Assembly: GCA_934202735.1 (NCBI GenBank)
Contig: CAKPYH010000002.1
Coordinates: 42,945-106,944 of the forward strand
Length of the DNA stretch: 64,000 nucleotides
Direction of reading: 5' to 3'
DNA from: an uncultured Alphaproteobacteria bacterium
Lineage (GTDB): Bacteria > Pseudomonadota > Alphaproteobacteria > CAAHEQ01 > UBA3637
Shown: piece by piece, positions 5,147 through 47,915 of the stretch
How positions within the stretch are numbered: position 1 is the stretch's first letter
Layout of the letters: each line of letters begins with the position of its first letter
Translations under genes and position numbers: made by a program
The notes under the pieces: model-generated
What the model saw: the letters and a program-made list of their open reading frames with translations, nothing else
What the model was told of the DNA's origin: nothing
The model's database searches: none

Positions 5147-5302
5147 TCGGTTTTTATATTTAGCCATCGGGCATACGGTCGGAATCCGCTTCATTCTTGT
5201 TTGTCATATCATCATTGGTCATTTTTCAAAAAATAAGTCTATATAATTCAAAGGAATAGGTCCGATAGACAACCCTTACGGGTATTGTGTTGATATTTAG
5301 TA

Positions 5303-5331
5303 TTGCAAACAACATTAAAGTGTGATACAAT
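5303..5331 (+). promoter_or_regulatory. Sigma70-type promoter of RHH gene (TTGCAA-17-TACAAT)
   Basis: Near-consensus -35/-10 with 17-bp spacer 28 bp upstream of an AAAGGAGG RBS; duplicated with copy B. Confidence 0.45.
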
Positions 5332-5358
5332 CGCCTTATCCACCAAAGGAGGTTTCGG

Positions 5359-5637
5359 ATGTTTTTTTGTAAAACGGTTATGGTCAATGGTCGGCGCACC
5401 AGCGTGCGTTTGCTGCGACAAACATGGGTCTATATCAACGAAATTTGTATGAACGAGAACACAACCATTCATTATCTGTGTTCCCGGTTAGATCAGGAAC
5501 GGGGACGTATGGGGTTGTCTACGGCGGTACGCATGTTTGCGCTAACGTATTATCGTGATAAGTGTCAAGCCTACAAGCATCAACTGGATTGTTTGTCTTT
5601 GCGTCAAAAAAAGCCCCATCAAGCCTCTAACGGTTAG
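5359..5637 (+). CDS. Small ribbon-helix-helix DNA-binding protein (COG4321-like), copy 1
   Basis: 92 aa; GRRTSVRLLRQTWVYINEIC...LSTAVRMFALTYYR resembles RHH-domain proteins; strong RBS and promoter. Confidence 0.55.
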   Translation: MFFCKTVMVNGRRTSVRLLRQTWVYINEICMNENTTIHYLCSRLDQERGRMGLSTAVRMFALTYYRDKCQAYKHQLDCLSLRQKKPHQASNG

Positions 5638-5683
5638 TCAGGCCAAGGCCCCGTTCTTGGCTTATAATATATTGACGCTTCTC

Positions 5684-5738
5684 CCTGGATTCCCGATTTC
5701 TTATGAATGACAAGAGAGAAAAACCGGAAATGACAGGG
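5684..5738 (+). repeat. Degenerate right-end module of the MITE-like repeat family (see 47803..47998)
   Basis: cctggattcccgatttcttatgaatgacaag ~80% similar to cctggatttccgctttcgcgtgaatgacaaa at 47960..47998. Confidence 0.4.
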
Positions 5739-5794
5739 CATTACATAAATGATGATCAACACACATGGGTCGTTTGAACAGGTTTCTGTTTTTG

Positions 5795-6292
5795 TCAGGC
5801 GACTCGTGAACGTTTGGCCCATAATCGGCGTAAAGATATTTCTCTATCGGTTTTGGATTTTTGTGCATCAGAGTGCGAATGGGCCCGCAAAGTGTTTTTC
5901 ATCTTAGATTTTGAAACACTGTCTACATGTTTGTTTTCCTGTGCCAAGTGTTCGCTTTTGATATAAATAGCTTGTTTAGTCAGACGTTGCTGCATAGGGG
6001 CTAATTTATTAAAGTTGTCCGCGATCATTTCAGCCGTCTGTACGGGTAAACCATCGGCCTTTTGCTTGGCCTGTACATCCTGCACCAAAGCATTCAAGAG
6101 TTCTTGATGTTGCTTCTGCTGTAATTCATAGTGTTCTTTCCCGTAGGACATACCGTGCGTCCGGTATTCTTGGGCCGGGGCTACACGGGATTGGATCGTC
6201 CCTTGTGCCAGGGGGGTCAAGATGTTTTTTTCATAATAGGCTTCTATTTTTTTACGCTTGATTTTATTTGCCGGGGATGTTTGTTTGATCAT
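5795..6292 (-). CDS. Hypothetical protein (Gln/Lys-rich, no recognisable domain)
   Basis: 165-aa ORF with GGAGG RBS 6 nt upstream; lies between RHH copy A and 3' end of tRNA-Arg. Confidence 0.4.
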   Translation of the reverse strand: MIKQTSPANKIKRKKIEAYYEKNILTPLAQGTIQSRVAPAQEYRTHGMSYGKEHYELQQKQHQELLNALVQDVQAKQKADGLPVQTAEMIADNFNKLAPMQQRLTKQAIYIKSEHLAQENKHVDSVSKSKMKNTLRAHSHSDAQKSKTDREISLRRLWAKRSRVA

Positions 6293-6401
6293 GGTGCCTC
6301 CGTGAGTACATTCCTATTATATCACGCAAGTGAATGTTTGACAAGTTTTTTGCATTGAATCGTAAAAGCGGGGCTTTACATACCCTGTAAAACCCCGATA
6401 A

Positions 6402-6478
6402 TGGCGATCCCGGCAGGACTTGAACTTGCGACCCACAGCTTAGAAGGCTGTTGCTCTATCCAGCTGAGCTACGGGACC
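6402..6478 (-). tRNA. tRNA-Arg (anticodon TCT)
   Basis: Reverse complement GGTCCCGTAGCTCAGCTGGATAGAGCAACAGCCTTCTAAGCTGTGGGTCGCAAGTTCAAGTCCTGCCGGGATCGCCA folds as cloverleaf; anticodon loop CTTCTAA; 7-bp acceptor stem; T-loop GTTCAAGTC. Confidence 0.85.
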
Positions 6479-6513
6479 ATGCAGTGCATCATACACGAAA
6501 GCGGGGGGATTTG

Positions 6514-7287
6514 TCAAGTTGTTTTTAAGATTTCATCCAGTCCCATCCCGTTTCGCAACAGATGTTCTGCCACTTGTGTACGGGTGTTGGTTGCGGTATG
6601 CATCGTTAAAGGCGGGTACAGGCGTAAAGGGCGGTGGCTGTCCAGACGGCCCCGTACGATGATTCGTCCCGCAGATTCCTGTATATGTCCGTGAACGGGA
6701 ATGATGTCTATGGCCCCCAGTTTCCCGTTTAACAGGGATAACAAAGTCGGTAATTCTTGTGTGCGGTGGATGAGTGTCAGTGTTCCTTTGGCACGAATAT
6801 GGCGCAGGCAAAAAGCAATCCAGTCAGCCAGAGAGACTTTTTGGTGGTAAGCGGTGGCTGTTTGCGGACACGTCCGGTGTTTGGTTTCGGTATAAAAGGG
6901 AGGATTGCTGACCACATGGTGAAATTGACGACCGTGAATTGGCGAAGGTTTGTCCGCTACATTCCCTAAAACCGGGCGAAAGCAGATACCGTGCCTGTGT
7001 GCATTTTCTGTCGCGAGACGCAGCAGCTCATCTTGAATCTCAAAACCGGTTATATCTAAATGATCGGCGCGGGTGGATATGCAACAAGGAATAATACCAC
7101 CACCGCATCCGACATCCAAAACGGTATCACCGGTTTGAACAGGGACGGCCGCCGCCACCAAAACAGAATCCGATGTTGCCCGCAAGCCGTTCAGGGGTTG
7201 CATCAGGTGTATTTTACCGCCTAAAAAATCATCGGTTGTTATTTCTGTCATTCCTGCTATGTTAGCCGTATTTATGCGATTTGTCAA
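6514..7287 (-). CDS. SAM-dependent N6-adenine methyltransferase, TrmN6/YfiC-like
   Basis: VLDVGCGGGI SAM motif I and NPPF motif IV. Confidence 0.65.
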   Translation of the reverse strand: MTNRINTANIAGMTEITTDDFLGGKIHLMQPLNGLRATSDSVLVAAAVPVQTGDTVLDVGCGGGIIPCCISTRADHLDITGFEIQDELLRLATENAHRHGICFRPVLGNVADKPSPIHGRQFHHVVSNPPFYTETKHRTCPQTATAYHQKVSLADWIAFCLRHIRAKGTLTLIHRTQELPTLLSLLNGKLGAIDIIPVHGHIQESAGRIIVRGRLDSHRPLRLYPPLTMHTATNTRTQVAEHLLRNGMGLDEILKTT

Positions 7288-7387
7288 TGTTCATACATAG
7301 AAAAGAAGATATTTTGAAAAAAAGACTTGCATTTTATGTAAAAAAGGGTTAAAATCAAACCCGCAATTTTTTGATAAGGAGATTAAA

Positions 7388-7621
7388 ATGCCATCAGTAG
7401 TGAATGATTCTTGCGTTTTGTGCAAGTCTTGTGTAGAAGTTTGTCCTGTTGCCGCATTCCATGATGCGGGAACTCAGGTTGTTGTGGATCCGGATACCTG
7501 CATTGATTGCGGTGTCTGCATTTCCGAATGTCCGCAAGGGGCGATTCAACCGGCCGATGAAGCCGATGCCAAGTGGGTTGCCTTTAATGCGGAAAAAGCC
7601 GCCGAATGTCCGGCTGCTTAA
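7388..7621 (+). CDS. fdxA: 2x[4Fe-4S]-type ferredoxin
   Basis: Two CxxCxxCxxxCP motifs (CVLCKSCVEVCP, CIDCGVCISECP); AAGGAG RBS. Confidence 0.85.
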   Translation: MPSVVNDSCVLCKSCVEVCPVAAFHDAGTQVVVDPDTCIDCGVCISECPQGAIQPADEADAKWVAFNAEKAAECPAA

Positions 7622-7669
7622 AACCGAGAAACTAGGGAAAAGGCTCTGTTGACAGGGCCTTTTTTTATC

Positions 7670-8617
7670 ATGTCAGTATATTCCGTCACATCCGATAATA
7701 TGGAAAAAGCTGCCCGATTGATTCGGGACGGCGGTTTGGTGGCATTTCCAACAGAAACGGTCTATGGATTGGGGGCAAACGCGTATAATGCAACGGCCGT
7801 TGCCCATATTTTTCAGGCCAAGAACAGACCGACTTTCAATCCTTTGATTTCGCATATTGCTGATGCGGACGCGTTGAAGGGGTATGCTCAAACCGATTCG
7901 CGGGTGATGGCGTTGGTCAAACATTTTTGGCCGGGGCCTTTGACTTTTGTATTAAAACGCTTAGATATGTCGCCGTCTTTGGATTTGGCCTGTGCGGGAT
8001 TACCGACTGTAACGGTGCGTATGCCTAATCATCCGGTGGCGTTGGATTTGATCCGGCGGGCAGGGGTCCCGGTTGTAGCCCCATCGGCCAATCGGTCGCA
8101 ATCTATCAGTCCGACCACCGCCGGTCATGTATGGGACAGTTTGGGGAATCGGGTGGATATGATATTGGATGGCGGTCCTTGTGCGGTTGGTGTGGAATCT
8201 ACGATTATTGATTTAACCGGTCCGCAAGTTGTGATGTTGCGTCCCGGTGGCGTAGCACGCGAAGTGTTGCAGGATTTTTTAAATGAACCGGTTTTGTTAT
8301 CGCACGGAAATCCGGATTTACCCCGTTCACCGGGACAGATGTTGAAACATTATGCGCCGTTGCATGCCTTTCGGATCAATGTGGTGGAACCTGAATCGGA
8401 TGAATTCTTTATCGGTTTTGGGACCGTTGGGCTAAACGCGCCTTTGAATTTAAGTCCGTCCGGAAATTTATGTGAAGCGGCGGCGCATTTATTTGATTAT
8501 ATGCATCGGGCCGATGCACAGACGATGTATGATAAAATTGCCATGGCTCCTATTCCCGAAACGGGCTTGGGATTAGCCATCAATGACCGTATTCGGCGGG
8601 CATCGTACAAAAAATAA
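7670..8617 (+). CDS. tsaC: L-threonylcarbamoyladenylate synthase (Sua5/YciO/YrdC family)
   Basis: GGLVAFPTETVYGLGANA YrdC signature plus C-terminal Sua5 domain; start after ferredoxin terminator hairpin. Confidence 0.85.
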   Translation: MSVYSVTSDNMEKAARLIRDGGLVAFPTETVYGLGANAYNATAVAHIFQAKNRPTFNPLISHIADADALKGYAQTDSRVMALVKHFWPGPLTFVLKRLDMSPSLDLACAGLPTVTVRMPNHPVALDLIRRAGVPVVAPSANRSQSISPTTAGHVWDSLGNRVDMILDGGPCAVGVESTIIDLTGPQVVMLRPGGVAREVLQDFLNEPVLLSHGNPDLPRSPGQMLKHYAPLHAFRINVVEPESDEFFIGFGTVGLNAPLNLSPSGNLCEAAAHLFDYMHRADAQTMYDKIAMAPIPETGLGLAINDRIRRASYKK

Positions 8618-8740
8618 GTCACAAAGAAAATAGCCCTTTCGGGGTATCAACAAGTTTTTTTCATTTTTTTGCCTTTTTTTGTTGCAAAAAAACACAATTT
8701 TTTGTATTGATAACTATATTGTTCAAAAAGGAGTTTAGAA

Positions 8741-11212
8741 ATGGCATCTGGGACCAAAAAAACAAGCAAGCGTCAAATTACGGCTAAGCAATTACAGGAA
8801 CGTATTGAATGGCATATCAAGTATTCTCTGTCCAAACGAGTGTGTGAAGCCCATAAGGATCATCTGTTTTTGGCGCTGGCGATGGCGGTTAGAGACCTAT
8901 GTATAGATAACATGTTTGAAACGGCCCGCCGCCATCAGGAAAAAGATCCCAAGCGTGTTTATTATCTATCGTTGGAGTACCTGTTGGGACGGTTGTTGCC
9001 GAACAATTTGTATAATTTTGAAATCATGGATTTGTTGGATAAGATACACTTGGATAATCCGATTCCTTTGCGTGATGTATTGGATTGCGAATATGATCCG
9101 GCGTTGGGTAACGGGGGCTTGGGACGATTGGCGGCATGTATTTTGGATTCTATGGCGACACAAGATTTACCCGGATACGGATATGGTATCAATTATCAAT
9201 TCGGGTTGTTCAAACAATACTTTGAAAACGGATGGCAACGAGAACACGCCGATTCATGGCTGGAACATTCATCGCCGTGGCAGATTGAACGCGTGGATCG
9301 GTCGCAACTTGTGCAAGTAGGCGGGCGAGTCGTATTTGAAGAAAAAAACGGTCATCGGGAACCGCACTGGATTGATACCAAACAGATTTTAGGAATCCCT
9401 TTTGACATGCCGATTGTGGGGTATGGTGGCAAGACAGTAAATTATTTACGCTTGTTTTCGGCCCATTCTACGAATGTATTGGATATTGAAACGTTTAACA
9501 AAGGCGGTTATATTCAAGCGGTTGAACAGAATATTCGTGTGGAAACGATTTCTAAAGTTTTGTATCCTTCCGATGCCATTGAGCAAGGGAAATATCTGCG
9601 CCTGATGCAACAATACTTTTTTGTATCGTGTGTGATTGCGGATATTTTACGCCGCTTTTCGGAAGATCATGTGGATTTTGAACAATTACCTGAAAAAGTG
9701 GTTATTCACCTGAATGATACGCATCCGACACTGGCTATTGTGGAATTGATGCGATTATTGACGGATGTGTATCGGTTGGATTGGGATAAAGCATTCAGTA
9801 TTACCTGTCGCACGATGGCTTATACCAATCATACTCTTTTGCCGGAAGCGTTGGAAACGTGGCCGGTGGCAATGTTTGAAAAGTTATTGCCGCGTCATTT
9901 GTTGATTATTTACGAAATCAATGATTGGTTAATGCATCAGGTTATGGCCAGGTATCCTGGGGATACAGCTAAACTGACACGGATGTCGTTGATTGAAGAA
10001 GGTGCCGAAAAGAAAGTTCGTATGGCGAATCTGGCCATTGTCGGCAGTTTTTCCGTCAATGGAGTGGCGGCCATTCATACCGAATTGTTAAAGCATAACC
10101 TGGTACCGGATTTTTATGATATGTGGCCCGAACGGTTTAATAATAAAACAAACGGTGTGACACCGCGGCGGTGGTTGTTGGAATCCAATCAGGGGTTATC
10201 CCGTTTTATTACCCGGCACATCGGCGATAAATGGATTACGCATCTGCAAGACTTGAAACGATTGGTCCCTTTGGCACAAGACCCGAAAGTGTTGGATGAA
10301 ATCAACAGCATCAAGTTTGAAAATAAGAAAGCCCTGGCTGCTTTGATTGAACGAACAACGGGAATAGTGGTGGATCCGTCCGCCTTGTTTGATTGTCAGG
10401 TCAAGCGCATTCATGAATACAAACGTCAACTGTTGAATGCTTTACACATTATTCATCAGTATTTAAGCATTGTTCAAGACGGGCAGACTTTGACCGTACC
10501 GCGCGTCTATGTATTTGGCGGTAAGGCAGCCCCCAGTTATGAGATCGCTAAACTGATTATTAAATTGATCAACAATATCGCAAAAGTTATCAACAATGAT
10601 GCACGCGTGGGTACCCAATTAAAGGTCGCTTTTATTCCGGATTATAAAGTTTCGGTGGCCGAAGTTGTGTTTCCGGGGGCCGATGTCAGTGAACAAATTT
10701 CTACCGCCGGATTTGAAGCCTCCGGTACCAGTAATATGAAGTTTGCCATGAACGGTGCTTTAACATTGGGGACTTTGGATGGGGCCAATGTGGAAATTAT
10801 GCAGGAAGTAGGGCGTGAAAATTTCTATCTGTTTGGGTTGACGGCAGAAGAAGTTCATCATCGGCAAACCACCGGAACACACCGGCCATGGGATTACTAC
10901 AACAATAATCCGCAAATTAAACGAGTCATGGATTCTTTGACAAACGGGTTATTTACGCCGGATGAAAATAAAGACTTGTTTGTGCCGTTGTTCCAAAACA
11001 TTATGTTTAAAGATTATTATATGCTGTTGGCGGATTTTGATTCTTATGTGTTGGCACAAGAACAAATTGCACAGGATTACTTGAATAAACATTTGTGGGC
11101 GCGTAAGGCTTTGTTGAATATTGCGCACTCCGGCAAATTTTCTATTGACCGGACGGTGGCGGAATATGCACATGATATTTGGCATGTACACAGCAGTGTG
11201 AGTAAGAAATGA
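8741..11212 (+). CDS. glgP: Glycogen/alpha-glucan phosphorylase
   Basis: 823 aa; EASGTSNMKFAMNGALTLGTLDGANVE pyridoxal-phosphate site; GT35 family. Confidence 0.9.
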   Translation: MASGTKKTSKRQITAKQLQERIEWHIKYSLSKRVCEAHKDHLFLALAMAVRDLCIDNMFETARRHQEKDPKRVYYLSLEYLLGRLLPNNLYNFEIMDLLDKIHLDNPIPLRDVLDCEYDPALGNGGLGRLAACILDSMATQDLPGYGYGINYQFGLFKQYFENGWQREHADSWLEHSSPWQIERVDRSQLVQVGGRVVFEEKNGHREPHWIDTKQILGIPFDMPIVGYGGKTVNYLRLFSAHSTNVLDIETFNKGGYIQAVEQNIRVETISKVLYPSDAIEQGKYLRLMQQYFFVSCVIADILRRFSEDHVDFEQLPEKVVIHLNDTHPTLAIVELMRLLTDVYRLDWDKAFSITCRTMAYTNHTLLPEALETWPVAMFEKLLPRHLLIIYEINDWLMHQVMARYPGDTAKLTRMSLIEEGAEKKVRMANLAIVGSFSVNGVAAIHTELLKHNLVPDFYDMWPERFNNKTNGVTPRRWLLESNQGLSRFITRHIGDKWITHLQDLKRLVPLAQDPKVLDEINSIKFENKKALAALIERTTGIVVDPSALFDCQVKRIHEYKRQLLNALHIIHQYLSIVQDGQTLTVPRVYVFGGKAAPSYEIAKLIIKLINNIAKVINNDARVGTQLKVAFIPDYKVSVAEVVFPGADVSEQISTAGFEASGTSNMKFAMNGALTLGTLDGANVEIMQEVGRENFYLFGLTAEEVHHRQTTGTHRPWDYYNNNPQIKRVMDSLTNGLFTPDENKDLFVPLFQNIMFKDYYMLLADFDSYVLAQEQIAQDYLNKHLWARKALLNIAHSGKFSIDRTVAEYAHDIWHVHSSVSKK

Positions 11213-11952
11213 CAGACATCATTCAAGAAGATAAACGATTCTATGGTCGTCGGCGGGGCAAGCCGATTAAGAAATCGCGCCAAACATTGATTGCAGACTT
11301 GCTGCCACGGGTGGCGATCGGCCTGCCATCGGGCGGTGAACAAATAGACGTGCAACATATTTTTGGCATCACACCGCGGGAAGTGTGGCTGGAAGTCGGC
11401 TTTGGCGGTGGTGAACATGTGGCCGAATTGGCCAAAATATATTCTGATGTCGGTATGATTGGGGCTGAACCGTTTATGAACGGTGTTGCCTCTCTATTAG
11501 CGCATTTGAACGGCTCGCACGGGCGGCAGGCTGTTCATGCCGATTTAGAATCCGGTCGGACCGATAATGTTCGGATTTGGCCCGATGATATACGGATTTT
11601 ATTTCCGATGTTTCCGGACGGTTGTTTTGAACGTATTTTTATTTTATACCCGGATCCGTGGCCTAAAGCGCGCCATGCCGAACGACGGTTTATTAATCAT
11701 AAAAACATCCCGATTTTATCACGATTATTGTCGGATACGGGACGTATTTATGTGGCAACAGATGTGTCGGCCTACGCCGAATGGGCCCAAGAAAAAATGG
11801 ACGAATCGGGTCTGTTTGAACGGGAAAATACGGATATAACCGTCCCGCCCGCCGATTGGGTACCGACACGGTATGAAAAGAAAGGGCTTGCGGCCGGACG
11901 ACGACCGACATATTTGGTTTTTTGCAAAAAAATATCGGATAATGATAAATAA
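11209..11952 (+). CDS. trmB: tRNA (guanine46-N7)-methyltransferase
   Basis: LEVGFGGGEHV SAM motif, YPDPWPKARH motif; overlaps glgP stop by 4 nt. Confidence 0.85.
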   Translation: MTDIIQEDKRFYGRRRGKPIKKSRQTLIADLLPRVAIGLPSGGEQIDVQHIFGITPREVWLEVGFGGGEHVAELAKIYSDVGMIGAEPFMNGVASLLAHLNGSHGRQAVHADLESGRTDNVRIWPDDIRILFPMFPDGCFERIFILYPDPWPKARHAERRFINHKNIPILSRLLSDTGRIYVATDVSAYAEWAQEKMDESGLFERENTDITVPPADWVPTRYEKKGLAAGRRPTYLVFCKKISDNDK

Positions 11953-12007
11953 TGCTTGACGAATGATAAAAAATAGGTAAAGATAAAAGGAAAGGAGATC
12001 ATATATC

Positions 12008-12313
12008 ATGAATTATAAAACACTCAATATCAAGGACGGCAAGGAAATTGTTGTTTCCGGATCGTTTACCTTTCGGGATCACGACACATTTTTTGAAATT
12101 GTGTCTTTGATTAAAAGCGCACAAGACAAAAAGATTGTCTTTAACATGGGCGAATGTGATTTTATTGATTCGGCGGCTTTGGGGATGTTTGTGATTGCTC
12201 ATGATGAGGCTTCTTCTAAAGGCGTAGCGTTGTCTATCAAGGGTGTTAAAGGCAAGGTTAAAGATGTGATGTACGCCGCCCGGTTTGACAGTCTATATAA
12301 ATTTGAAGACTGA
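12008..12313 (+). CDS. STAS-domain protein (anti-sigma-factor-antagonist-like)
   Basis: 101 aa; FNMGECDFIDSAALGMFV pattern typical of STAS/SpoIIAA fold. Confidence 0.55.
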   Translation: MNYKTLNIKDGKEIVVSGSFTFRDHDTFFEIVSLIKSAQDKKIVFNMGECDFIDSAALGMFVIAHDEASSKGVALSIKGVKGKVKDVMYAARFDSLYKFED

Positions 12314-12389
12314 TACTTTGGCGATTTTTGTTATCCCCGTTTCAGTTTTATCTTGACATATAACTGAATCGGGGGTATTTTATATCCAA

Positions 12390-12836
12390 ATGAAATTAGT
12401 CATACAGCGTGTTTTGAAATCATCCGTGGCCGTGTCGGGACAAATTGTGGGACAAATCGGGCCGGGGTTATGCGTTTTGGCGGGTGTGGCCCCGACAGAT
12501 ACCGAAGCGGATATAGAGCAAATGGCCGCCAAGATGGTACACTTGCGTATTTTTGCCGATGAGGCAGGCAAAATGAATCGTTCTTTATTGGATGTGAACG
12601 GCGCGGCATTGATTGTGTCGCAATTTACATTATTGGCCGATTGCATACACGGGCGACGACCCTCATTTACCGGGGCCGGAGATCCGGTACGGGCCGAACG
12701 ATTGTATAACCTGTTTTTAGAAAAGGTGGCGGCTTTCGGTGTGTCGGTAGCGCATGGTGTTTTCGGTGCGGATATGGTGGTATCCCTTGATAATGACGGG
12801 CCGGCTACATTTATTTTGGAGATACCCGGAAAATGA
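12390..12836 (+). CDS. dtd: D-aminoacyl-tRNA deacylase
   Basis: MKLVIQRV..., SQFTL and NDGPxTF motifs. Confidence 0.85.
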   Translation: MKLVIQRVLKSSVAVSGQIVGQIGPGLCVLAGVAPTDTEADIEQMAAKMVHLRIFADEAGKMNRSLLDVNGAALIVSQFTLLADCIHGRRPSFTGAGDPVRAERLYNLFLEKVAAFGVSVAHGVFGADMVVSLDNDGPATFILEIPGK

Positions 12837-15575: not shown

Positions 15576-15651
15576 TTTATAATCCTTTCTGTTATGATGT
15601 TAAAGACTACCCATGGATATAGCACAGGTGTCTTGTAAAATCAAGAAAAAT

Positions 15652-16434: not shown

Positions 16435-19400
16435 ATGTTAAAACAAGCAATTTTCAAACCATCGTTTATGCCATTGTGGCTCTCACACTTTTTGTCCGTG
16501 ATGAATGATGGTTTCATCCGGATGGTCTTTTTGTATTTTGCTACCTATCAGATGACTCAGGCCGGTACCGTTTTTTTAATTCCGGCCGTGATTTCGTATG
16601 CGTTGTGCTTTTGTGTGGCCAGTTTATACGCCGGTCCTATTGCCGATAAATTTTCACGCGTGCGTTTTTTGCGCTGGATTCGGATGGCCGAGGTCGGTTT
16701 AATGTTGATGGCGTTGGGCTCTGTGTTTTGGGAATCGCGTTTTGTTTTGACCTTGATACTGGCTTTGTTGGGTTTGACAGGGGCCAGTTTACGGGTAGTC
16801 AATAATGCTTTATTGATGACAGTGGTGGGGAAAACACACCTGAACTTTGGGAATCTGTGGATGAAAACCCTGTCGGTTGTAGGGGCAGGATGCAGTACAT
16901 TGTTGCTGATGTCTGTTTTGAAGTTTGATGTAGCCGCCGGTTTGGTGTGCGGTTTGGCGGTTTTGTTCGCTTGTATCAGTTTGGGGACAACTTACCTGTT
17001 GGATATGGATGCACCGGCAGATGAAACTTGCCCGTTGACTTCACATCCGTGGGTGGCTTTTGAACCTGTGTTAGCCTCATTGAAACATCAATTTGACAAG
17101 TGGGCCTACCTGGTCGGGATTGCTTGGTTTTGGATATTGGGCAGCTTGATTTTCTTCTTTTCGGCCGAATACGGACATACTGTTTTGAATGCGCGTTGGT
17201 CCGTTGTAACCTTTTTAAGCTCGGGTATTTTTACGGCCGGATATTTGGTCGGGGCCGTCATATATGCTCGTTTGACACGTCGGGGAAATTTGTTCTCATG
17301 GACGGTTTGGACCGGGTTGAGTATCTCTGTCTTTTTGATGGATTTAGTTTTCGCCGGCGGGGCCGTCATGTCGGATCCGAATGTTAAAGGTATTACGGTC
17401 CATGATATGTTGTTCGGCGGTGTCAATTATTGGCGTGTGATCTTGGATACATTCTTTTTGGGCGGATGTACGGCTATTTATATTGTCCCTTTTTATACCA
17501 TGCTGCAAAAGACATGTGCTAATGCTTTGCTGGGTCGGACCATGGCGTTTGGAAGTGTTATCAATGCTATCGGTATTATGGCGGCCTTTTTGATCGTTTT
17601 GTGCTTCCGCTTGTTGGGGATAGATTTGCAAACGATTATCTTATTGTTTGCCATAGCAAATATTTTTGTGGCGATTTATATGGTTCGTTTGTTGCCGGTA
17701 GAAACACGGCGGCGGGTGTTCCAAATTGTCCTGAAAAAATTGTTTAAGGCCCGAATTGAAGGGTTGGAAAACCTGAAAAAAGCAGGGCCGCGTGCTTTGA
17801 TTGTCACCAATCATACGTCTTATTTAGATGTTTTGTTGATTTCGGCGTTTGTAGAACGCAAGATTGTCTTTGCGATTAATGATCAACTGATTGACAAAAG
17901 TTTTGTGAAGTTTTTGACAAACTTGGTGGATGTCCGTCCGATGGATCCGGTGAGTCCTTTTGCCGTCAAGGATATGGTGGAAGAATTGAATAAGGATCAG
18001 TTGTGTATGATCTTTACGGAAGGCATTATTGAAGGCGGTAATACGCGGATGAAAATTTACGAAGGACCGGCCATGATGGCGGCCAAAGGTGATGCGCCGA
18101 TTGTACCGATACGGATTGACGGGGCCAATCATGCGATTTTCTCCCGTGTCTTGGGGAAAAAAGCGGATTTTCGGTTGTTGCCAAAAATTACGCTAACGGT
18201 TTTGCCGCCGGTATATTTTAACGATTTTCCCGATGATATGCCGACTCGCGAAGTGCGTGAACGGTCCAGTCTTCGGCTGTATCATGTGATGTCCGATATG
18301 ACTTTTGACAGTTATGAAAAGGATAAAACCGTGTTTGAAAGTTTAACATATTCCATGGATATGGTCGGGCGTTTCAAACCGGTCTTGGAAGATACCTCTC
18401 GCAAGCCGGTCAAGTTTATCGGGGTATTCTTAAAGGCCTTTGTTTTGGGTAAATTGATTCATCGGGTGGCTCCGGAAGATAAATATGTCGGCGTGATGAT
18501 TCCTACTTCTAATGTCTGTGCCTTAACGGTGTTTGGGCTGCATGCTTATGGTAAAGTACCCGCTATGCTGAATTTTACCAGTGGCCCGCAGCAAGTTATT
18601 GCGACCTGTCAAACGGTTGGATTAAAAACGGTTATTACAGCCAAAAAAGTTGTAGCGTTGGCCAAGTTGGAAAATATGATTACAGCGTTGACGGAAGCCG
18701 GGATACGCGTGGTGTATTTGGAAGATTTGGCACCGTCTTTGACATTACGGGATAAATTGGCCGGTGTTTTGGCAGCGGTCTTCCCGCGGCGGGCGTACCG
18801 TAAAACCAGCGGCGGTCAAGTTAAACCTGATGATCCGGCGGTGATTTTATTTACATCCGGGTCTGAAGGTTTCCCTAAAGCTGTCTTTTTAACGCATCGG
18901 AATTTAATTTCCAATGCATATCAGGTCCCGTCTCGGTTTGATATTTTACCGACCGATGTATTTTTGAATGTGCTGCCCATGTTCCATTCATTCGGTTTGG
19001 GGGCCGGGACAATCTTGCCTTTGTTGATTGGTGTTAAAGCGGTTTTGTACCCGACACCGCTGCATTATCGGATTATTCCGCAACTGTGTGCATCTGCCCG
19101 GGCGACAATTTTCTTTGCCACGGATACGTTTTTGGCCGGTTATGCCAAATGTGCCAATCCGTACGATTTTAACAGTCTGCGGTTGGTGGCTGCCGGTGCC
19201 GAAAAAGTCAAGGATGATACACGGAAAATTTGGTCTGAAAAATTCGGAGTGCGTGTTTTGGAAGGATATGGGGCAACGGAATGTTCCCCTTTTATCTCCT
19301 GTAATTCATTCTTGGAACAACGGTTGGGATCGGTGGGGCGGTTTTTACCGCGCATGGAATATCGGTTAAAGCCGGTGGAAGGTATTACCGAAGGGGGTGA

Positions 19401-19857
19401 ATTATGGGTGAAAGGTCCGAATATCATGATGGGCTATATGCGACATGATCAACCTTTGGTGTTGGATCCGCCAAAAGACGGGTGGTATGATACGGGGGAT
19501 ATCGTTGAAGTTGATTCGGACGGTTATATTTTCATCAAAGGGCGTTGTAAACGTTTTGCCAAAATCGGGGGGGAAATGGTATCCTTGATGGCGGTAGAAA
19601 GTGTTATCAATAAAAAATGGCCCGATTATATTTCCGGGGCGGTCAATATTCCCGATCCGCGTAAAGGCGAACAAATTGTTTTGGTTACAACGTGTAAAGA
19701 CATTACCAAAGAGGCATTGATCGCGGTATTTCGGGCGGCCGGAGTGACAGAATTGGGTTTGCCGAGCCGTATTATTATAACGGATACCCCCCCTTTATTA
19801 GGAACCGGCAAGTTTAACTATGTCTTGGCCAAAGAAATGGCTTTAAAAGACGCGTAA
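16435..19857 (+). CDS. aas: Fused lysophospholipid transporter (MFS, LplT) / 1-acyl-glycerol-3-phosphate acyltransferase / acyl-ACP synthetase (Aas)
   Basis: ~1140 aa; N-terminal 12-TM MFS; VTNHTSYLDVLL (HX4D acyltransferase motif); C-terminal AMP-binding (FTSGSEGFPKAV, EGYGATE); ATG 16435 with AAGGAG RBS. Confidence 0.85.
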   Translation: MLKQAIFKPSFMPLWLSHFLSVMNDGFIRMVFLYFATYQMTQAGTVFLIPAVISYALCFCVASLYAGPIADKFSRVRFLRWIRMAEVGLMLMALGSVFWESRFVLTLILALLGLTGASLRVVNNALLMTVVGKTHLNFGNLWMKTLSVVGAGCSTLLLMSVLKFDVAAGLVCGLAVLFACISLGTTYLLDMDAPADETCPLTSHPWVAFEPVLASLKHQFDKWAYLVGIAWFWILGSLIFFFSAEYGHTVLNARWSVVTFLSSGIFTAGYLVGAVIYARLTRRGNLFSWTVWTGLSISVFLMDLVFAGGAVMSDPNVKGITVHDMLFGGVNYWRVILDTFFLGGCTAIYIVPFYTMLQKTCANALLGRTMAFGSVINAIGIMAAFLIVLCFRLLGIDLQTIILLFAIANIFVAIYMVRLLPVETRRRVFQIVLKKLFKARIEGLENLKKAGPRALIVTNHTSYLDVLLISAFVERKIVFAINDQLIDKSFVKFLTNLVDVRPMDPVSPFAVKDMVEELNKDQLCMIFTEGIIEGGNTRMKIYEGPAMMAAKGDAPIVPIRIDGANHAIFSRVLGKKADFRLLPKITLTVLPPVYFNDFPDDMPTREVRERSSLRLYHVMSDMTFDSYEKDKTVFESLTYSMDMVGRFKPVLEDTSRKPVKFIGVFLKAFVLGKLIHRVAPEDKYVGVMIPTSNVCALTVFGLHAYGKVPAMLNFTSGPQQVIATCQTVGLKTVITAKKVVALAKLENMITALTEAGIRVVYLEDLAPSLTLRDKLAGVLAAVFPRRAYRKTSGGQVKPDDPAVILFTSGSEGFPKAVFLTHRNLISNAYQVPSRFDILPTDVFLNVLPMFHSFGLGAGTILPLLIGVKAVLYPTPLHYRIIPQLCASARATIFFATDTFLAGYAKCANPYDFNSLRLVAAGAEKVKDDTRKIWSEKFGVRVLEGYGATECSPFISCNSFLEQRLGSVGRFLPRMEYRLKPVEGITEGGELWVKGPNIMMGYMRHDQPLVLDPPKDGWYDTGDIVEVDSDGYIFIKGRCKRFAKIGGEMVSLMAVESVINKKWPDYISGAVNIPDPRKGEQIVLVTTCKDITKEALIAVFRAAGVTELGLPSRIIITDTPPLLGTGKFNYVLAKEMALKDA

Positions 19858-20011
19858 AAACAGGACGGTACCGGTGATTTCCCCGTAGGTTTTTGACAAG
19901 CCTGCGGGGAAAAATCATTTTATTAAAAATAAGGCTTGCAATTTTTATAAAAATGGATTATACTAACACCACTTTGAAACTTTTAGACCGTTGGAAAGGG
20001 GTGAAAAAAAT

Positions 20012-20212
20012 ATGGTAACTATTGTTGTTCATGACAATAATGTGGAACAGGCTTTGCGTGTTTTGAAAAAGAAAATGCAACGTGAAGGTAGTTTGCGTGA
20101 AATGAAATTGCGGCGGTATTACGAAAAACCGTCCGAAAAGAAATTGCGCAAGGCAACCGAATGTCTGCGCCGATCCCGGAAAATGCAACGGAAACGTTAT
20201 AACGAAGGCTAG
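20012..20212 (+). CDS. rpsU: 30S ribosomal protein S21
   Basis: Basic 66-aa protein, ...[26 protein letters not shown]; RBS GGAAAGGGG. Confidence 0.85.
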
Positions 20213-20230
20213 AACCTTTTGGACCGTTTT

Positions 20231-20262
20231 GGCACCGCCTTTTGGGGCGGTGCTTTTTTTTG
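20231..20262 (+). terminator. Rho-independent terminator after rpsU
   Basis: gcaccgcc-ttttgg-ggcggtgc followed by TTTTTTTT. Confidence 0.65.
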
Positions 20263-20396
20263 GGGGCATAATAGGAAACCGATCCGTAAGGAAAAAATGA
20301 AAATCATGTAAAAAAATCTCTTGGGGGGCTGGACAAAATCAAAAAAAAAGTGTATAAGGTCCCCATCCATTTTTAATTTAACGAAAGGATATTTAA

Positions 20397-23300
20397 ATGG
20401 CTAAAACAAAAATGCTGGACGGTAATGAAGCGGCCGCTCTGGTGGCACATAAATTAAATGAAGTTTCAATTATCTATCCGATTACGCCTTCTTCACCGAT
20501 GGGTGAATGGTCTGATCAATGGGCGGCTGCGGGGATAACCAATATCTGGGGTAAAGTGCCGGAAGTTTTGGAAATGCAATCCGAAGCCGGGGCCATCGGT
20601 GCCGTTCACGGTTCGTTGCAGGCCGGATCCATTACCACAACTTACACGGCCTCTCAAGGGTTGTTGTTGATGATTCCGAACATGTATAAAATTGCAGGTG
20701 AATTGACACCATTCGTGATGCATGTGGCGGCGCGGACAATTGCCGGACATGCCCTGTCTATTTTCGGTGATCATTCGGACGTGATGGCTTGCCGTCAGAC
20801 GGGCTTTGCCATGTTGGCCAGTAATTCGGTACAGGAAGCCCATGATTTGGCTGCGATTGCACAGATGAGCACATTCTTGTCCCGTATTCCGTTCCTGCAC
20901 TTTTTTGACGGTTTCCGGACTTCTCATGAAATCAATAAAATCAATCTGATGAGTGATGACGACCTGCGTACTTTGATGGACGGGATTCCGATGGACTTTA
21001 CGGTCAAACATGCTTTAACACCGGAAAATCCGACCATTCGCGGTACGGCACAAAATCCGGATATTTTCTTCCAAACCAAGGAAGCCGCCAACAAATACTA
21101 CAATGCGGTACCGGGTATCGTGGAAGAATGTATGCGCAAGTTTGAAAAAATCGTTGGGCGCAGTTATCACATTGTTGACTATGTGGGCCCGGCTGATGCG
21201 GAACACGTAGTGGTTGCTATGGGATCCGGTGTGGAAGTGTTGGAAGAGACGGCTCATGCCTTAAATGCCAAAGGTGCTAAGTACGGTGTGATTTCCGTGC
21301 ACTTATATCGTCCGTTCCCCAAAGAAGCATTCCTGAAAGCTTTACCGGCGACAACCAAGTATATTACGGTTTTGGATCGGACAAAGGAATCCGGTTCGGT
21401 GGGTGAACCGTTGTATTTGGATGTGGTATCCACTTTGGCCGAAGGGGTTAAAGGGGCTATGCCCAAAGTGTTGGGTGGTCGCTATGGGTTATCCTCAAAA
21501 GAATTCAACCCGGCAATGGCTAAGGCGGTCTTTGAAAACACGACCAAAAACCATTTCACGGTGGGGATTGATGATGATGTAACGCACTTATCATTGGATT
21601 ACGATCCGCACTTTGATATTGAAGGTGATGACGTATCTCGTTGTGTCTTTGTGGGCCTGGGGGCTGATGGTACAGTGGGTGCGAACAAAAACTCCATTAA
21701 AATTATTGCCGATGGTGAAGACTATTATGGTCAAGCCTATTTTGTTTATGATTCCAAAAAGTCCGGTGGTATGACCACATCACACTTGCGCTTTTCCAAA
21801 AAGCCGATTCGGGCGCCGTATCAGATTCAAACGGCCGGTTTTGTGGCGTGCCATCACATGCCGTTCTTGTTCAAGACCGATATTTTGACTTTTGCAGCTC
21901 CGGGGGCCGTTTTCTTGATTAACACGCAAGAACCGCCTGAAAAAGTTTGGGAAACTCTGCCGCGTGAAGTGCAACAGGAAATCGTGGACAAGCATATCCG
22001 TCTGTACGCGATTGATGCTGTATCCGTTGCGGAAAAGACGGGGATGGGTCGCCGAATTAACACGATTATGCAAACGTGTTTCTTTGCCATTTCCGGTGTG
22101 TTGCCCAAAGATGAAGCTATTGCTAAGATTAAAGCATCTATTACCAAAACTTACATGAAAAAAGGTCAGGAAATTGTAGATGCGAATATCAAAGCGGTTG
22201 ATGCGTCTTTGGCGCATTTGCATGAAATTCCGGTGGGGCCTGTCAATTCAAAATTGATGCGTCAACCGGGTATTCCGGCCGGTGCCCCCGAATTGCTGGA
22301 AAAAGTGACCAGTCCCATTATTGAAGGGCGGGGCGATCGTTTGCCGGTGAGTGCTTTTGAAACGACGGCGGACGGTGTATGGCCCACAGATACGGCTAAA
22401 TATGAAAAACGCCGGATTGCAACCGAAATCCCGGAATGGGATCCGGAAATTTGTATCCAGTGCGGTAAGTGTATATCCGTATGTCCCCATGCGGCTTTGC
22501 GTGCCAAAGTATTTGATCCGGCTAAATTGGCAACGGCTCCGGCGGGTTTCCGTTCGGCCGATTATAAAGCCAAAGATTTTGCGGGTCAAAAATGGGTGGT
22601 ACAAGTGGCACCGGAAGATTGTACCGGTTGCTCGTTGTGTACACAGGTTTGTCCGGCCAAGTCCAAGACCGAACCGGTCAAAAAGGCTTTGGTGATGGAA
22701 CCGATTGAAAAGAATTTGGACGCTGAAATTGCTAACTTCAAATTCTTTATGGAACTGCCTGATGCCGACAGAAGCAAATTGAACCCCAAGATGATTAAAT
22801 CTGTCGCTTTAATGCGGCCGCTGTTTGAATTTTCGGGTGCTTGTGCGGGTTGCGGTGAAACGCCGTATGTCAAGATGATGACGCAGTTGTTCGGTGATCG
22901 GTTGGTGATTGCGAATGCAACGGGTTGTTCATCCATTTACGGCGGGAACTTGCCGACTACACCGTATGCCAAAGATGCCAAAGGGCATGGACCGGCTTGG
23001 GCGAACAGTTTGTTTGAAGACAATGCCGAATTCGGCTTGGGTATGCGGACTTCCATTGATTCCAAAACGGCTTTTGCAACACAACTGTTGACGGAAATGC
23101 GTGCCGAAGTCGGAGAAGAATTGGCGAAATCCTTATTAGAAGCCGATCAATCCACCGAACAAGGCATTACCGAACAACGGATGCGTGTGGAAATGCTGAA
23201 ACAAAAATTGGCGACCATGCAAACGCCGAAAGCCAAATTATTGGCGGATAATGCCGATTATCTGGTCAAGAAATCCGTATGGATTTTGGGCGGTGACGGT

Positions 23301-23915
23301 TGGGCCTATGATATTGGTTACGGCGGATTGGATCATGTCCTGTATTCCGGCAAGAACGTGAATATTCTGGTTTTGGATACGGAAGTGTATTCCAACACCG
23401 GCGGACAACGGTCCAAAGCGACTCCGATTGGGGCCAGTGCCAAGTTTGCTACATCGGGCAGTGCGTTGCCGCGCAAGGATTTGGCGATGATTGCAGCGTC
23501 TTCGGGCGGTGTGTATGTCGGGACCATTTCTTTGGGGGCCAAGGATTCCCATGCCTTGCAGGTAATGAACGAAGCCGAATCCTTTAACGGACCGTCTTTG
23601 ATTATTGCTTACAGCCATTGTATCTCTCATGGATACGATATTGGCAAGAAAGGCTTGGAACACCAAAAGATGGCGGTTGAAACGGGTTTGTGGAATTTGT
23701 TCCGTTATGACCCGCGGCGCAAAGCGCAAGGCTTAAATCCGTTCCAGTTGGACAGCAAGCCGACACGTCCGGTGGCCGAATTCATGGCAACCGAAACACG
23801 GTTCAAATTTGTGCGGCAACAAAATCCTGAACACTATGAAAAGTTAGTTCAGATGAATCAAGCACAAATTGATGAACGCGTGGCGTTCTACACCAAGATG
23901 GCTAAAGACGATTAA
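20397..23915 (+). CDS. nifJ: Pyruvate:ferredoxin (flavodoxin) oxidoreductase
   Basis: 1172 aa; two CxxCxxCxxxCP ferredoxin motifs (CIQCGKCISVCP, CTGCSLCTQVCP), TPP-binding GGDGWAYDIG. Confidence 0.9.
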   Translation: MAKTKMLDGNEAAALVAHKLNEVSIIYPITPSSPMGEWSDQWAAAGITNIWGKVPEVLEMQSEAGAIGAVHGSLQAGSITTTYTASQGLLLMIPNMYKIAGELTPFVMHVAARTIAGHALSIFGDHSDVMACRQTGFAMLASNSVQEAHDLAAIAQMSTFLSRIPFLHFFDGFRTSHEINKINLMSDDDLRTLMDGIPMDFTVKHALTPENPTIRGTAQNPDIFFQTKEAANKYYNAVPGIVEECMRKFEKIVGRSYHIVDYVGPADAEHVVVAMGSGVEVLEETAHALNAKGAKYGVISVHLYRPFPKEAFLKALPATTKYITVLDRTKESGSVGEPLYLDVVSTLAEGVKGAMPKVLGGRYGLSSKEFNPAMAKAVFENTTKNHFTVGIDDDVTHLSLDYDPHFDIEGDDVSRCVFVGLGADGTVGANKNSIKIIADGEDYYGQAYFVYDSKKSGGMTTSHLRFSKKPIRAPYQIQTAGFVACHHMPFLFKTDILTFAAPGAVFLINTQEPPEKVWETLPREVQQEIVDKHIRLYAIDAVSVAEKTGMGRRINTIMQTCFFAISGVLPKDEAIAKIKASITKTYMKKGQEIVDANIKAVDASLAHLHEIPVGPVNSKLMRQPGIPAGAPELLEKVTSPIIEGRGDRLPVSAFETTADGVWPTDTAKYEKRRIATEIPEWDPEICIQCGKCISVCPHAALRAKVFDPAKLATAPAGFRSADYKAKDFAGQKWVVQVAPEDCTGCSLCTQVCPAKSKTEPVKKALVMEPIEKNLDAEIANFKFFMELPDADRSKLNPKMIKSVALMRPLFEFSGACAGCGETPYVKMMTQLFGDRLVIANATGCSSIYGGNLPTTPYAKDAKGHGPAWANSLFEDNAEFGLGMRTSIDSKTAFATQLLTEMRAEVGEELAKSLLEADQSTEQGITEQRMRVEMLKQKLATMQTPKAKLLADNADYLVKKSVWILGGDGWAYDIGYGGLDHVLYSGKNVNILVLDTEVYSNTGGQRSKATPIGASAKFATSGSALPRKDLAMIAASSGGVYVGTISLGAKDSHALQVMNEAESFNGPSLIIAYSHCISHGYDIGKKGLEHQKMAVETGLWNLFRYDPRRKAQGLNPFQLDSKPTRPVAEFMATETRFKFVRQQNPEHYEKLVQMNQAQIDERVAFYTKMAKDD

Positions 23916-24022
23916 AACGTCCGATAACCTGACACCCCGACCGATTGGCCGGGGTGTTATTGTATAGAAAACTACCGGCTAGTCCGGTAGTTCCGGAGAG
24001 CTTATAGCTATGCAAGAAAAAA

Positions 24023-24082
24023 ATCCTTTGTTATAACGAGAGAGATGATTTGCGAAAGTCAATCAAGAAATAACAAAGGATT
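24023..24082 (+). promoter_or_regulatory. Inverted repeat (atcctttgttat / ataacaaaggat) occluding the RBS of the tnpA remnant
   Basis: 12-bp perfect inverted repeat ~37 bp apart; 3' arm overlaps AAGGA RBS; resembles known IS200 RBS-sequestering 5'UTR stem-loop. Confidence 0.4.
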
Positions 24083-24086
24083 TTAA

Positions 24087-24236
24087 AATGGACAATAGAC
24101 CATTATCGCACACGCCATGGAATTGCAAGTACCATGTTGTATTCGCACCCAAATATTGCAGATATGCCTTTTACGAATGGCGACGAATGGAAATAGGTCA
24201 AATATTCGCGGTACCACCGGCTCATGGGACTGCGTA
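24087..24236 (+). pseudogene. tnpA: IS200/IS605-family Y1 transposase (TnpA) N-terminal remnant
   Basis: MDNRPLSHTPWNCKYHVVFAPKYCRYAFY... matches conserved TnpA start (SLAHTRWNCKYHIVFAPKYRR); reading frame decays after ~40 aa with early stop. Confidence 0.55.
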
Positions 24237-24355
24237 AATAAAAAGTTGCCGGTGGCAAGTTTTTATGCTTCGCCATTCACCTTATTGAAAACAAGGACAA
24301 CCCTTTGTCCACCGTTTGAAATCTAGGTGGAATTGAACAAGGATAGGAGTAGGCC

Positions 24356-24415
24356 TGTCATCTTCGGGCTTGACCCGGGTACCCCCCCGTCATCTTCGGG
24401 CCCTGTCGGAGAACC
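24356..24415 (+). repeat. Two tandem left-end modules of the MITE-like repeat family
   Basis: tgtcatcttcgggcttgacccgggt and cgtcatcttcgggccctgtcggag; same motif as 47803 and 47916. Confidence 0.5.
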
Positions 24416-24439
24416 GGTGGAAAACGTCAATAAGTTCTG

Positions 24440-24880
24440 AACCCAGAACGAGGCGTTGACCTGACTAAACGTTAGAGGCTTTATGAGTCTTTTTTTGACG
24501 CAAAGACAGACAATCCAGTTGATGCTTGTACGCTTGACACTTATCACGATAATACGTTAACGCAAACATGCGTACCGCCGTAGACAACCCCATACGCCCC
24601 CGTTCCTGATCTAACCGGGAACACAGATAATGAATGGTTGTGTTCTCGTTCATACAAATTTCGTTGATATAGACCCATGTTTGTCGCAGCAAACGCACGC
24701 TGGTGCGCCGACCATTGACCATAACCGTTTTACAAAAAAACATCCGAAACCTCCTTTGGTGGATAAGGCGATTGTATCACATTTTAATGTTGTTTGCAAT
24801 ACTAAATATCAACACAATACCCGTAAGGGTTGTCTATCGGTCCTATTCCTTTGAATTATATAGACTTATTTTTTGAAAAA
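24440..24880. repeat. Copy B of ~440-bp inverted duplication (partner 5224..5660)
   Basis: Reverse complement near-identical to copy A including promoter, RBS and CDS. Confidence 0.8.
24465..24743 (-). CDS. Small ribbon-helix-helix DNA-binding protein, copy 2
   Basis: 92 aa, identical to copy 1 except C-terminal ...KKTHKASNV. Confidence 0.55.
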   Translation of the reverse strand: MFFCKTVMVNGRRTSVRLLRQTWVYINEICMNENTTIHYLCSRLDQERGRMGLSTAVRMFALTYYRDKCQAYKHQLDCLSLRQKKTHKASNV

Positions 24881-47900: not shown

Positions 47901-47915
47901 GACAGGGGTAAAACT

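Follow-up and report, generated by a model that had tools for sequence, protein, structure and literature searches.

Dispersed repeats such as ribosomal RNA (rrn) operons, insertion sequence (IS) copies, repetitive extragenic palindromes and bacterial interspersed mosaic elements (REP/BIME), and miniature inverted-repeat transposable elements (MITE) mediate rearrangements. At the sap locus of Campylobacter fetus, RecA-dependent inversion between long conserved 5' regions switches the surface-protein gene that is expressed. In Salmonella and E. coli, tufA and tufB are inverted, near-identical paralogues whose likeness is preserved by RecA-dependent gene conversion and which can yield chromosomal inversions (PMC5485169, PMC6735719). 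Here, a similar arrangement is described in a stretch of 64,000 nucleotides from an uncultured alphaproteobacterium (GenBank assembly GCA_934202735.1, contig CAKPYH010000002.1, positions 42,945 to 106,944; the whole stretch is referred to as the window). Two near-identical cassettes of approximately 460 bp, each encoding a 92-aa ribbon-helix-helix (RHH) protein of the Pfam family RHH_4, lie in inverted orientation on either side of 19 kb of mostly housekeeping genes. These two arms are probably members of a dispersed RHH_4 cassette family that occupies at least four fixed sites and exchanges sequence by gene conversion, and the 19 kb between them have not been seen to invert.

A repeat search of positions 4000-26000 returned only one inverted pair, 5222-5696 versus 24406-24880 (475 nt, 94% complementary). 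The core that aligns without gaps, 5222-5680 versus 24880-24422, is 459 bp long and has 20 mismatches (95.64% identity, by BLAST and exact count). In a self-BLAST of all 64 kb the pair is the sole long repeat, and chance is therefore excluded; the near-identical inverted duplication claimed by an earlier note on this DNA, which had been made from the sequence alone, is thus confirmed. The mismatches are distributed unevenly: 2 fall in the 137 bp of promoter and 5' untranslated region (98.5% identity), 8 in the 279 bp of the open reading frame (ORF), and 10 in the 43 bp at the 3' end, and the longest run without a mismatch is 184 bp. The outer flanks are rpoD, preceded by dnaG, on one side and hisS on the other. 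Between the arms are tRNA-Arg, fdx, tsaC/sua5, glgP, trmB, a gene for a STAS protein, dtd, murA, fba, aas, rpsU, and nifJ, among which are all of the genes and the tRNA listed previously. The two copies and their immediate surroundings comprise the following features:

5222..5680, plus strand: RHH cassette copy A, 144 bp downstream of rpoD; the core common to all family copies
5303..5331, plus strand: sigma-70-type promoter of copy A, TTGCAA-17-TACAAT, with TG at the extended -10
5345..5352, plus strand: ribosome-binding site of copy A, AAAGGAGG, 6 nt before the ATG, read directly
5359..5637, plus strand: 92-aa RHH_4 (PF13467) gene of copy A, from the Pfam match
5681..5794, no strand: site A tail with a degenerate copy of a short repeat family (…CCGGAAATGACAGGG)
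5795..6292, minus strand: 165-aa ORFan without a family match, the first gene of the conserved D1 side
24422..24880, minus strand: RHH cassette copy B, 274 bp downstream of hisS
24799-24771, minus strand: promoter of copy B, TTGCAA-17-TACAAT
24465..24743, minus strand: 92-aa RHH_4 gene of copy B; three residues differ from copy A, every one in the C-terminal tail
24881..24917, minus strand: approximately 36 bases of extra upstream homology, common only to the hisS-site and dnaKJ-site copies

The promoter is present in both arms as reported, although with 9 of 12 consensus matches plus the TG of an extended -10 it is good rather than near-consensus. The ribosome-binding site precedes the ATG by six bases in each arm, and both copies encode an RHH-like protein, as had been proposed, with identical scores against RHH_4 (52.8 bits versus a cut-off of 25, E 4e-14, residues 5-65). 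In contrast, the terminator hairpin that had been assigned to the cassette was not confirmed: the terminator scan found none within the A/B repeat and none after copy A, and copy B is followed by terminator-like hairpins (24310-24295 and 24258-24246) that are outside the shared repeat. Two tRNAs are the only Rfam matches in the window.

The two arms are not the only copies. Exact-protein look-ups reached about 60 contigs of the species in short-read metagenome assemblies from the human gut (Hadza and other cohorts), in which the cassette follows four unrelated gene sets: rpoD (site U1), hisS (U2), dnaK-dnaJ-orf294 (U3), and an ALGX/AMP-ligase/MBOAT operon (U4). Because the flanking genes in the cassette contigs are 97.9-100% nucleotide-identical to those of the window, all of these contigs belong to one species. 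What the copies have in common coincides exactly with the core seen in the window (positions 0-459), and the U2 and U3 copies share the additional ~36 bp upstream. Copies at U1, U2, U3, and U4 occur together in single samples (ERZ4568013, for instance, with NODE_763, NODE_1092, and NODE_1071), and therefore there should be at least four per genome. The distinct single-nucleotide polymorphisms (SNPs) of the window copies are reproduced in three independent assemblies. A search of representative-genome contigs with the RHH protein gave no match; the best rpoD relative there, in an alphaproteobacterial metagenome-assembled genome (MAG), is only 59% identical, and the species is thus absent from the representative genomes searched. 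A search for more copies, as recommended in the earlier note, therefore succeeded in the metagenome contigs of the species and failed in the representative genomes. One member of the family is decaying while the others stay intact: in several samples (L106-L110) the RHH ORF of the MBOAT-site copy has a frameshift after codon 27 that leaves a 65-aa product (P0009), and a 7-bp duplication (GTTCTGG) lies 3' of the ORF.

Among 21 distinct intact ORFs, the RHH domain (residues 1-66) carries 10 synonymous changes and 1 non-synonymous change, corresponding to a ratio of non-synonymous to synonymous polymorphism (pN/pS) of 0.03, and the C-terminal tail is looser (pN/pS 0.25). At the level of polymorphism, this marks the ORF as a real coding gene under purifying selection. 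The variable-site table of the copies is reticulate, with cassette SNPs common to different sites and strains. For instance, a five-SNP haplotype ('actat') is found in the U2 and U4 copies of ERZ4561630 and is absent from these two sites in other strains, ERZ4568013 has U2 and U3 copies without a single difference along 445 bp, and the D1-specific 3' tail is found with differing upstream haplotypes. Mean identity is 96.67% between different sites in the same sample, 96.71% between different samples at the same site, and 96.09% between different samples and different sites, compared with 98-99.4% for the flanking housekeeping DNA. The copies thus have no site signature and a polymorphism about three times that of their surroundings, which is the outcome expected of repeated non-reciprocal exchange among old paralogues. 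As in recombining inverted paralogues of the tufA/tufB type, the sequences bear the marks of exchange (95.6% identity over 459 bp, reticulate SNPs, and no clustering by site), and RecA-type homologous recombination, in the form of gene conversion, would account for copies that stay 94-100% alike. With respect to the recent duplication or gene conversion that had been suggested for the arms, the reticulate SNPs favor ongoing exchange, whereas a simple duplication into two copies does not agree with at least four sites.

Gene order around the two arms was compared between strains using three look-ups that are independent of the RHH gene and start from conserved small proteins: fdx, rpsU, and a 75-aa gene beside hisS. 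In the fdx look-up, every contig that reaches upstream has the order rpoD, cassette, optional ORFan, 165-aa gene, methyltransferase gene, and fdx, and site A is stable. In the rpsU look-up, 18 of the 21 long contigs continue from nifJ into a 60-aa gene, a 190-aa pilin-like gene, repeats, a gene for a 208-aa serine recombinase, OmpH, and a YadA-like gene; the order nifJ-cassette-hisS, as in the window, was present in the other three. In the look-up with the 75-aa gene, the hisS-site cassette is always present and leads into three different downstream blocks: rplI-rpsR-rpsF (six contigs), nifJ (three), or NfeD-Band7-hemerythrin-YchF (two or three). About nine contigs, approximately 40% of those with hisS, end within the cassette, as is expected for a multi-copy repeat. 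In NODE_268 of ERZ4561630, which is of the majority type, about 51 kb separate the nifJ end from the hisS-site cassette and include ATP-synthase and ribosomal-protein genes. The 19-kb bracket is a minority structural variant. Its nifJ-side boundary lies among the following features, 3' of copy B:

24340..24421, minus strand: short repeats of the GGGTCAAGCCCGAAGATGACA type
24226..24360, minus strand: element X, approximately 130 bp, with two terminator-like hairpins; found after cassettes elsewhere too, in both orientations
24017..24237, plus strand: IS200-like relic, with a perfect inverted repeat of 14 bp and, after it, the truncated N-terminus of tnpA (24088-24237)
23966..23975: end of collinearity with the majority strains just past the nifJ terminator, where the 19-kb arrangement has its breakpoint on the nifJ side

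Collinearity between the window and the majority strains stops at 23970, past the nifJ terminator and before the IS200-like relic. Since the nifJ-side breakpoint is at the IS200-like relic/X boundary, the window arrangement did not originate from crossing-over inside the RHH repeat. Elsewhere, the junctions U3-D3, U4-D5, U3-D5, and U4-D3 were all seen (L003, L017, L018, and L016, respectively; three of these four contigs are from metaSPAdes, and all are from short reads only), and the set looks like the product of a reciprocal exchange between two cassettes. Separately, the 208-aa serine recombinase encoded downstream of nifJ in most strains (L131 12123-14639; L132-L134 and L137) has Resolvase and HTH_7 domains and is invertase-sized. 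The window lacks this pilin/recombinase block, which could represent a pilin shufflon or another invertible system.

Beyond ~459-500, the copies diverge into a mosaic of short hairpin repeats (GTCATTCCCGCGAAAGCGGRAATCC; GGGTCAAGCCCGAAGATGACA) and element X, and the DNA 3' of the cassettes is a plastic zone in which gene order differs between strains. In the window, the short-repeat family is found 3' of copy B, at 47760-48060 upstream of a pilin-like gene, and as one degenerate copy 3' of copy A; repeat debris at the inner flank of each copy, as pointed out previously, is thus present. Tandem arrays 3' of the cassette were not found by Tandem Repeats Finder. The tnpA remnant that had been noticed beside copy B is IS200-like, but the match is weak. 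Its inverted repeat (24021-24034 / 24070-24083, read directly) ends 4 nt before the ATG and forms a subterminal hairpin, and its 49-aa ORF matches Y1_Tnp (PF01797) below threshold (E 0.004, 17.7 bits versus a cut-off of 23, profile positions 3-32 of 121). An intact IS200/IS605 transposase beside copy B was rejected for this reason, as the ORF is an N-terminal fragment and a relic at best.

Several observations weigh against a family of four or more copies homogenized by gene conversion. The copy number per genome is an estimate from co-sampled contigs. Copies within a genome are not clearly more alike than copies from different genomes, and homogenization is thus not strong. Moreover, all comparative data are short-read assemblies; k-mers and reads are usually shorter than the 184-bp identical core, so that assemblers can mis-join it or blend reads of different copies. 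The singleton junctions rpoD-cassette-NfeD (U1-D4, L014) and MBOAT-cassette-165aa (U4-D1, the 837-bp contig L009) may be chimeric, and these junctions and some of the SNP sharing could be artefactual.

With these reservations, the proposed mechanism is as follows. The unit is a self-contained expression cassette of about 460 bp, consisting of its own promoter, a strong ribosome-binding site, and the 92-aa RHH_4 gene, and it resides in one uncultured species of human-gut Alphaproteobacteria at fixed sites, at least four in number, after rpoD, hisS, dnaK-dnaJ-orf294, and the ALGX/AMP-ligase/MBOAT operon. Gene conversion between the copies would keep the cassettes alike. In a minority of strains, the hisS-cassette block would have become joined to the nifJ end at the IS200-like relic, giving the 19-kb bracket.

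A related lineage has the same dnaG-rpoD neighborhood, with an rpoD that is 71% identical and an RHH protein that is 42% identical to those of the window. The order there is rpoD, a leftward RHH gene, a 0.69-kb segment with a 73-aa ORF (ORF73), a rightward RHH gene, and an autotransporter gene. As an inverted repeat, the RHH units extend over 441 bp with 97.3-99.8% identity, and the promoter layout TTGCAA…TGTGATAC is kept. RHH cassettes next to rpoD, and inverted pairs of them, are thus an old trait of the family. An RHH_4 gene is present within 10 kb of rpoD in just 1 of 80 alphaproteobacterial rpoD loci, and the rpoD association is therefore specific to this lineage. The middle segment is flipped in one contig of the related lineage (L125), and in six other contigs the ORF73 end is next to the distal flank, all six being of one haplotype. 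These contigs are suggestive of an inversion of the 0.69-kb segment. A clear two-orientation inversion was considered and downgraded, because an arm-by-arm table of SNPs and flanks reduced the six 'inverted' contigs to one haplotype and a duplicated segment end is possible. No homologue of ORF73 was found in the window species, and the inter-repeat segment has no Rfam match. The segment itself (L115 7093-7779) contains the 73-aa ORF, which is conserved, Cys-rich, and without a family match, and a GC-rich, apparently structured stretch that ends in a hairpin and T-run (~7470-7690).

The alternative that fares best is that the cassette is or was mobile, as had also been proposed in the earlier note. 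In this case it would be a non-autonomous unit moved in trans, e.g. by an IS200/RAYT-type Y1 transposase together with the short repeats, and the arms would be two insertions. Consistent with this, the 5' edge (…CA|TTTTTCAAAAAATAAGTC) is identical at four unrelated sites, and the cassette adjoins the IS200-like relic and hairpin-rich small repeats in both orientations. However, a transposase is absent from the unit, its boundaries revealed neither terminal inverted repeats nor target duplications, and there is no insertion polymorphism, sites A and B being occupied in every contig that reaches them. The rpoD site is occupied even where rpoD is only 71% identical, and the location is therefore old. 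Additionally, no relatives of the RHH protein were found in phage and viral-contig collections, typical plasmid collections gave no match, and the IS200 match is sub-threshold. Therefore, although the common 5' edge stands, mobility is unproven and is considered unlikely.

A different possibility concerns what follows the cassettes. In most strains the next gene is a strain-specific ORFan on the cassette strand. At U1, between the site A tail and the 165-aa gene, other strains have an ORFan of 432 or 950 aa; at U2 there is one of 337 aa or a pilin-like Cys-rich protein of 272-388 aa; at U3 and U4 there is a 476-aa Sel1-like or a 248-aa protein, and U4 also has ORFans of 583-1169 aa; all of these lack a Pfam match. 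MORN-like proteins are likewise among the ORFans downstream of cassettes. The cassette might thus be the conserved head of variable-gene sites, with the RHH protein regulating strain-specific surface- or effector-like ORFans, and with the 460-bp homology and short repeats shuffling genes and chromosome arms between sites and strains. The setting would be a host-associated gut bacterium, with ankyrin-repeat proteins and a type IV secretion coupling protein encoded in the window and Sel1-like and MORN-like ORFans on contigs of the species; this broad proposal is quite unlikely. Its narrower form is improbable: here the cassettes would be regulatory heads of variable-gene expression sites, the RHH protein would control the ORFans that follow, and cassette homology would let ORFans exchange between sites and strains. 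Such a role would fit the observations that each cassette is followed by a different lineage-specific ORFan on the same strand and that the short repeats cluster only in zones 3' of cassettes and in variable zones. However, copies A and B of the window, like the cassettes of a few other strains, lack such an ORFan, and at 47.7-49.7 kb a pilin-like gene lies in a similar zone that is free of cassettes. The downstream genes have a promoter-like region of their own 0.4-1 kb away, with terminator-like hairpins in between, and a search for an operator that the cassette promoter has in common with the downstream-gene promoters containing AACCATGGTT found none.

The cassette-free variable zone (47689-49708) has the same short repeats as those after copy B (47760-48060), followed by a promoter, TTGCAA-17-TACACT, with the AACCATGGTT palindrome in its spacer (48155-48181). 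The N-terminus of its 520-aa ORF resembles a type IV pilin, internal repeats of the ORF are rich in Cys (49114-49204 recurs at 49399-49489), and paralogues of this ORF are present downstream of cassettes in other strains.

It could also be argued that junction diversity and SNP sharing are assembly artefacts, and that gene order is in fact stable and the copies evolve independently. The 184 bp of identity are longer than the k-mers and reads of most assemblies, many contigs break within the cassette, and some of the odd junctions were seen just once or on very short contigs (L009, L010, and L014). In contrast, the alternative junctions of the hisS-site cassette with rplI (six contigs), nifJ (three), and NfeD (two or three) recur across independent samples and assemblers, the nifJ-side difference (18 versus 3 contigs) is in unique sequence outside the repeat, and the distinct SNPs of the window copies were recovered from three independent assemblies. 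Artefact as the overall explanation is therefore just as improbable as the control of ORFans by the RHH protein.

The earlier note had also put forward a reversible inversion of the 19-kb segment and had named GC-skew polarity as a check. Neither a rpoD-cassette-nifJ junction nor a hisS-cassette-165-aa/fdx junction is present among the ~60 contigs of the species. GC skew is +0.08 to +0.21 over the 19-kb segment and approximately 0 at the minus-strand fba; it has the sign of the left flank and is negative only where genes change strand. No invertase, integrase, or recombinase was found in the window, either by Pfam on neighboring ORFs or by tblastn with the 208-aa serine recombinase of the species. 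A programmed or frequent flip-flop of the 19-kb segment is thus very improbable: although inverted arms with 184 bp of perfect identity suffice for RecA-dependent exchange and the 0.69-kb segment of the related lineage is assembled with either end beside rpoD (L125 versus L115, L123, and L126-128), there is no inverted junction, the skew is uniformly positive across the segment and left flank, housekeeping genes in the segment (rpsU, nifJ, and murA) are co-oriented, no invertase or integrase is in the window, the bracket is present only in a minority of strains, and the related-lineage case is one MEGAHIT contig or is explicable by a duplicated segment end. A site-specific invertible switch of the Hin/Gin/Fim type was rejected as well, given the absence of a recombinase from the window, the 459-bp arms, and the single orientation in all assemblies.

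The encoded protein is most likely a small dimeric DNA-binding regulator, as judged from its family and predicted fold. An AlphaFold2 model from a 36-sequence alignment (mean predicted local distance difference test score 90.6) has a beta-hairpin (E2-9/E12-19), two helices (H20-32 and H37-47), and a long C-terminal helix. Its closest solved structure is 3kk4 (BP1543 of Bordetella pertussis, an uncharacterized RHH_4 member; template modelling score 0.65, probability 1.0), and single-chain Arc is likewise among the PDB structure matches. The profile match to 3kk4 has an E of 2e-7; a phmmer search of the PDB with the single sequence gave no match, so that this structure was reached by profile only. 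A library-wide phmmer search returned 1130 cluster representatives at E<=1e-3, with the nearest non-self relative 52% identical. Neither the RHH protein nor the 165-aa ORFan has a match in NCBIfam, PADLOC, or PHROGs, no operator-like repeat was convincingly identified, and a literature search on PF13467/RHH_4 gave nothing relevant and no published function for any member. A toxin-antitoxin module with an RHH antitoxin was considered and rejected, because the repeat unit holds the RHH ORF alone, downstream genes vary by site, and there are no PADLOC hits. Stand-alone RHH_4 genes occur in Azospirillum at 2-4 loci per chromid, so that Rhodospirillales may commonly have RHH_4 genes in pairs or multiple copies. 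On plasmid AZO_p4 of Azospirillum lipoferum 4B (L158 1258-5315), two divergent genes with RHH domains flank a YcaO-TfuA-Crp cluster.

Other features of the window and of the species bear on the host. Pyruvate:ferredoxin oxidoreductase is encoded in the window and in other contigs of the species, and [FeFe]-hydrogenase is encoded in other contigs. The window also encodes, at 31070-38973 and 46882-47688, a type IV secretion coupling protein (32062-34260), a pentapeptide-repeat protein, and two ankyrin-repeat proteins. Together these suggest that the host, a gut alphaproteobacterium, lives anaerobically and possibly in association with cells; neither a cultured nor a representative genome is close to it (best rpoD 59%). 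A second copy of the 3' part of tRNA-Ser(CGA) (39090-39180, minus strand) is present, 39145-39217 recurring at 39295-39367 with 98.6% identity over 73 bp; this duplication, beside an ankyrin-repeat gene (37717-38973), looks like an att-type scar of an integrated element.

What is new here is that an apparent two-copy duplication is part of a species-wide, selected, multi-copy putative regulator gene that marks plastic parts of the chromosome. As a practical consequence, the cassette is a point at which assemblies and MAGs of this lineage break or may be wrongly joined, and claims about gene order therefore need long reads. The cassette also gives access to structural variation between strains in gut metagenomes, Hadza and others, and is a natural case of gene conversion among four or more small paralogues. 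For the uncharacterized RHH_4 family it provides a first biological lead, namely expression at high dosage beside variable host-interaction genes. If the variable-gene-site proposal were true, an expression-site-like diversification system would be built on this family.

Compared with the systems described above, tufA/tufB is the closest analogue in behavior. In both cases, inverted near-identical paralogues lie tens of kb apart, would keep their identity by exchange, and are potential substrates for inversion. In contrast to tufA/tufB, however, the unit here is a cassette that spans 460 bp, has a promoter of its own, codes for a small putative regulator, and is present in four or more copies rather than two; inversion between A and B was not observed, and breakpoints are mostly in the repeat-rich DNA beside the cassette. 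Similar to rrn operons, IS copies, REP/BIME, and MITE families, the cassette is multi-copy, coincides with synteny breakpoints and assembly breaks, and adjoins hairpin repeats and an IS relic, but it differs from them in being a selected protein-coding gene at fixed sites, with no insertion polymorphism and no transposase. The protein resembles BP1543 and other RHH_4 members, which are small stand-alone proteins and are often encoded several per replicon in Alphaproteobacteria such as Azospirillum, yet the copies here are near-identical and share a promoter, unlike ordinary diverged paralogues. Finally, in common with the sap locus, conserved 5' units of ~0.5 kb precede variable surface or host-interaction genes and provide homology long enough for RecA. 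In sap, however, the conserved stretch belongs to the variable gene, of which it forms the 5' part, and it is one promoter that changes place, whereas the cassettes here, for which switching would be hypothetical, each have a promoter and a complete ORF of their own.

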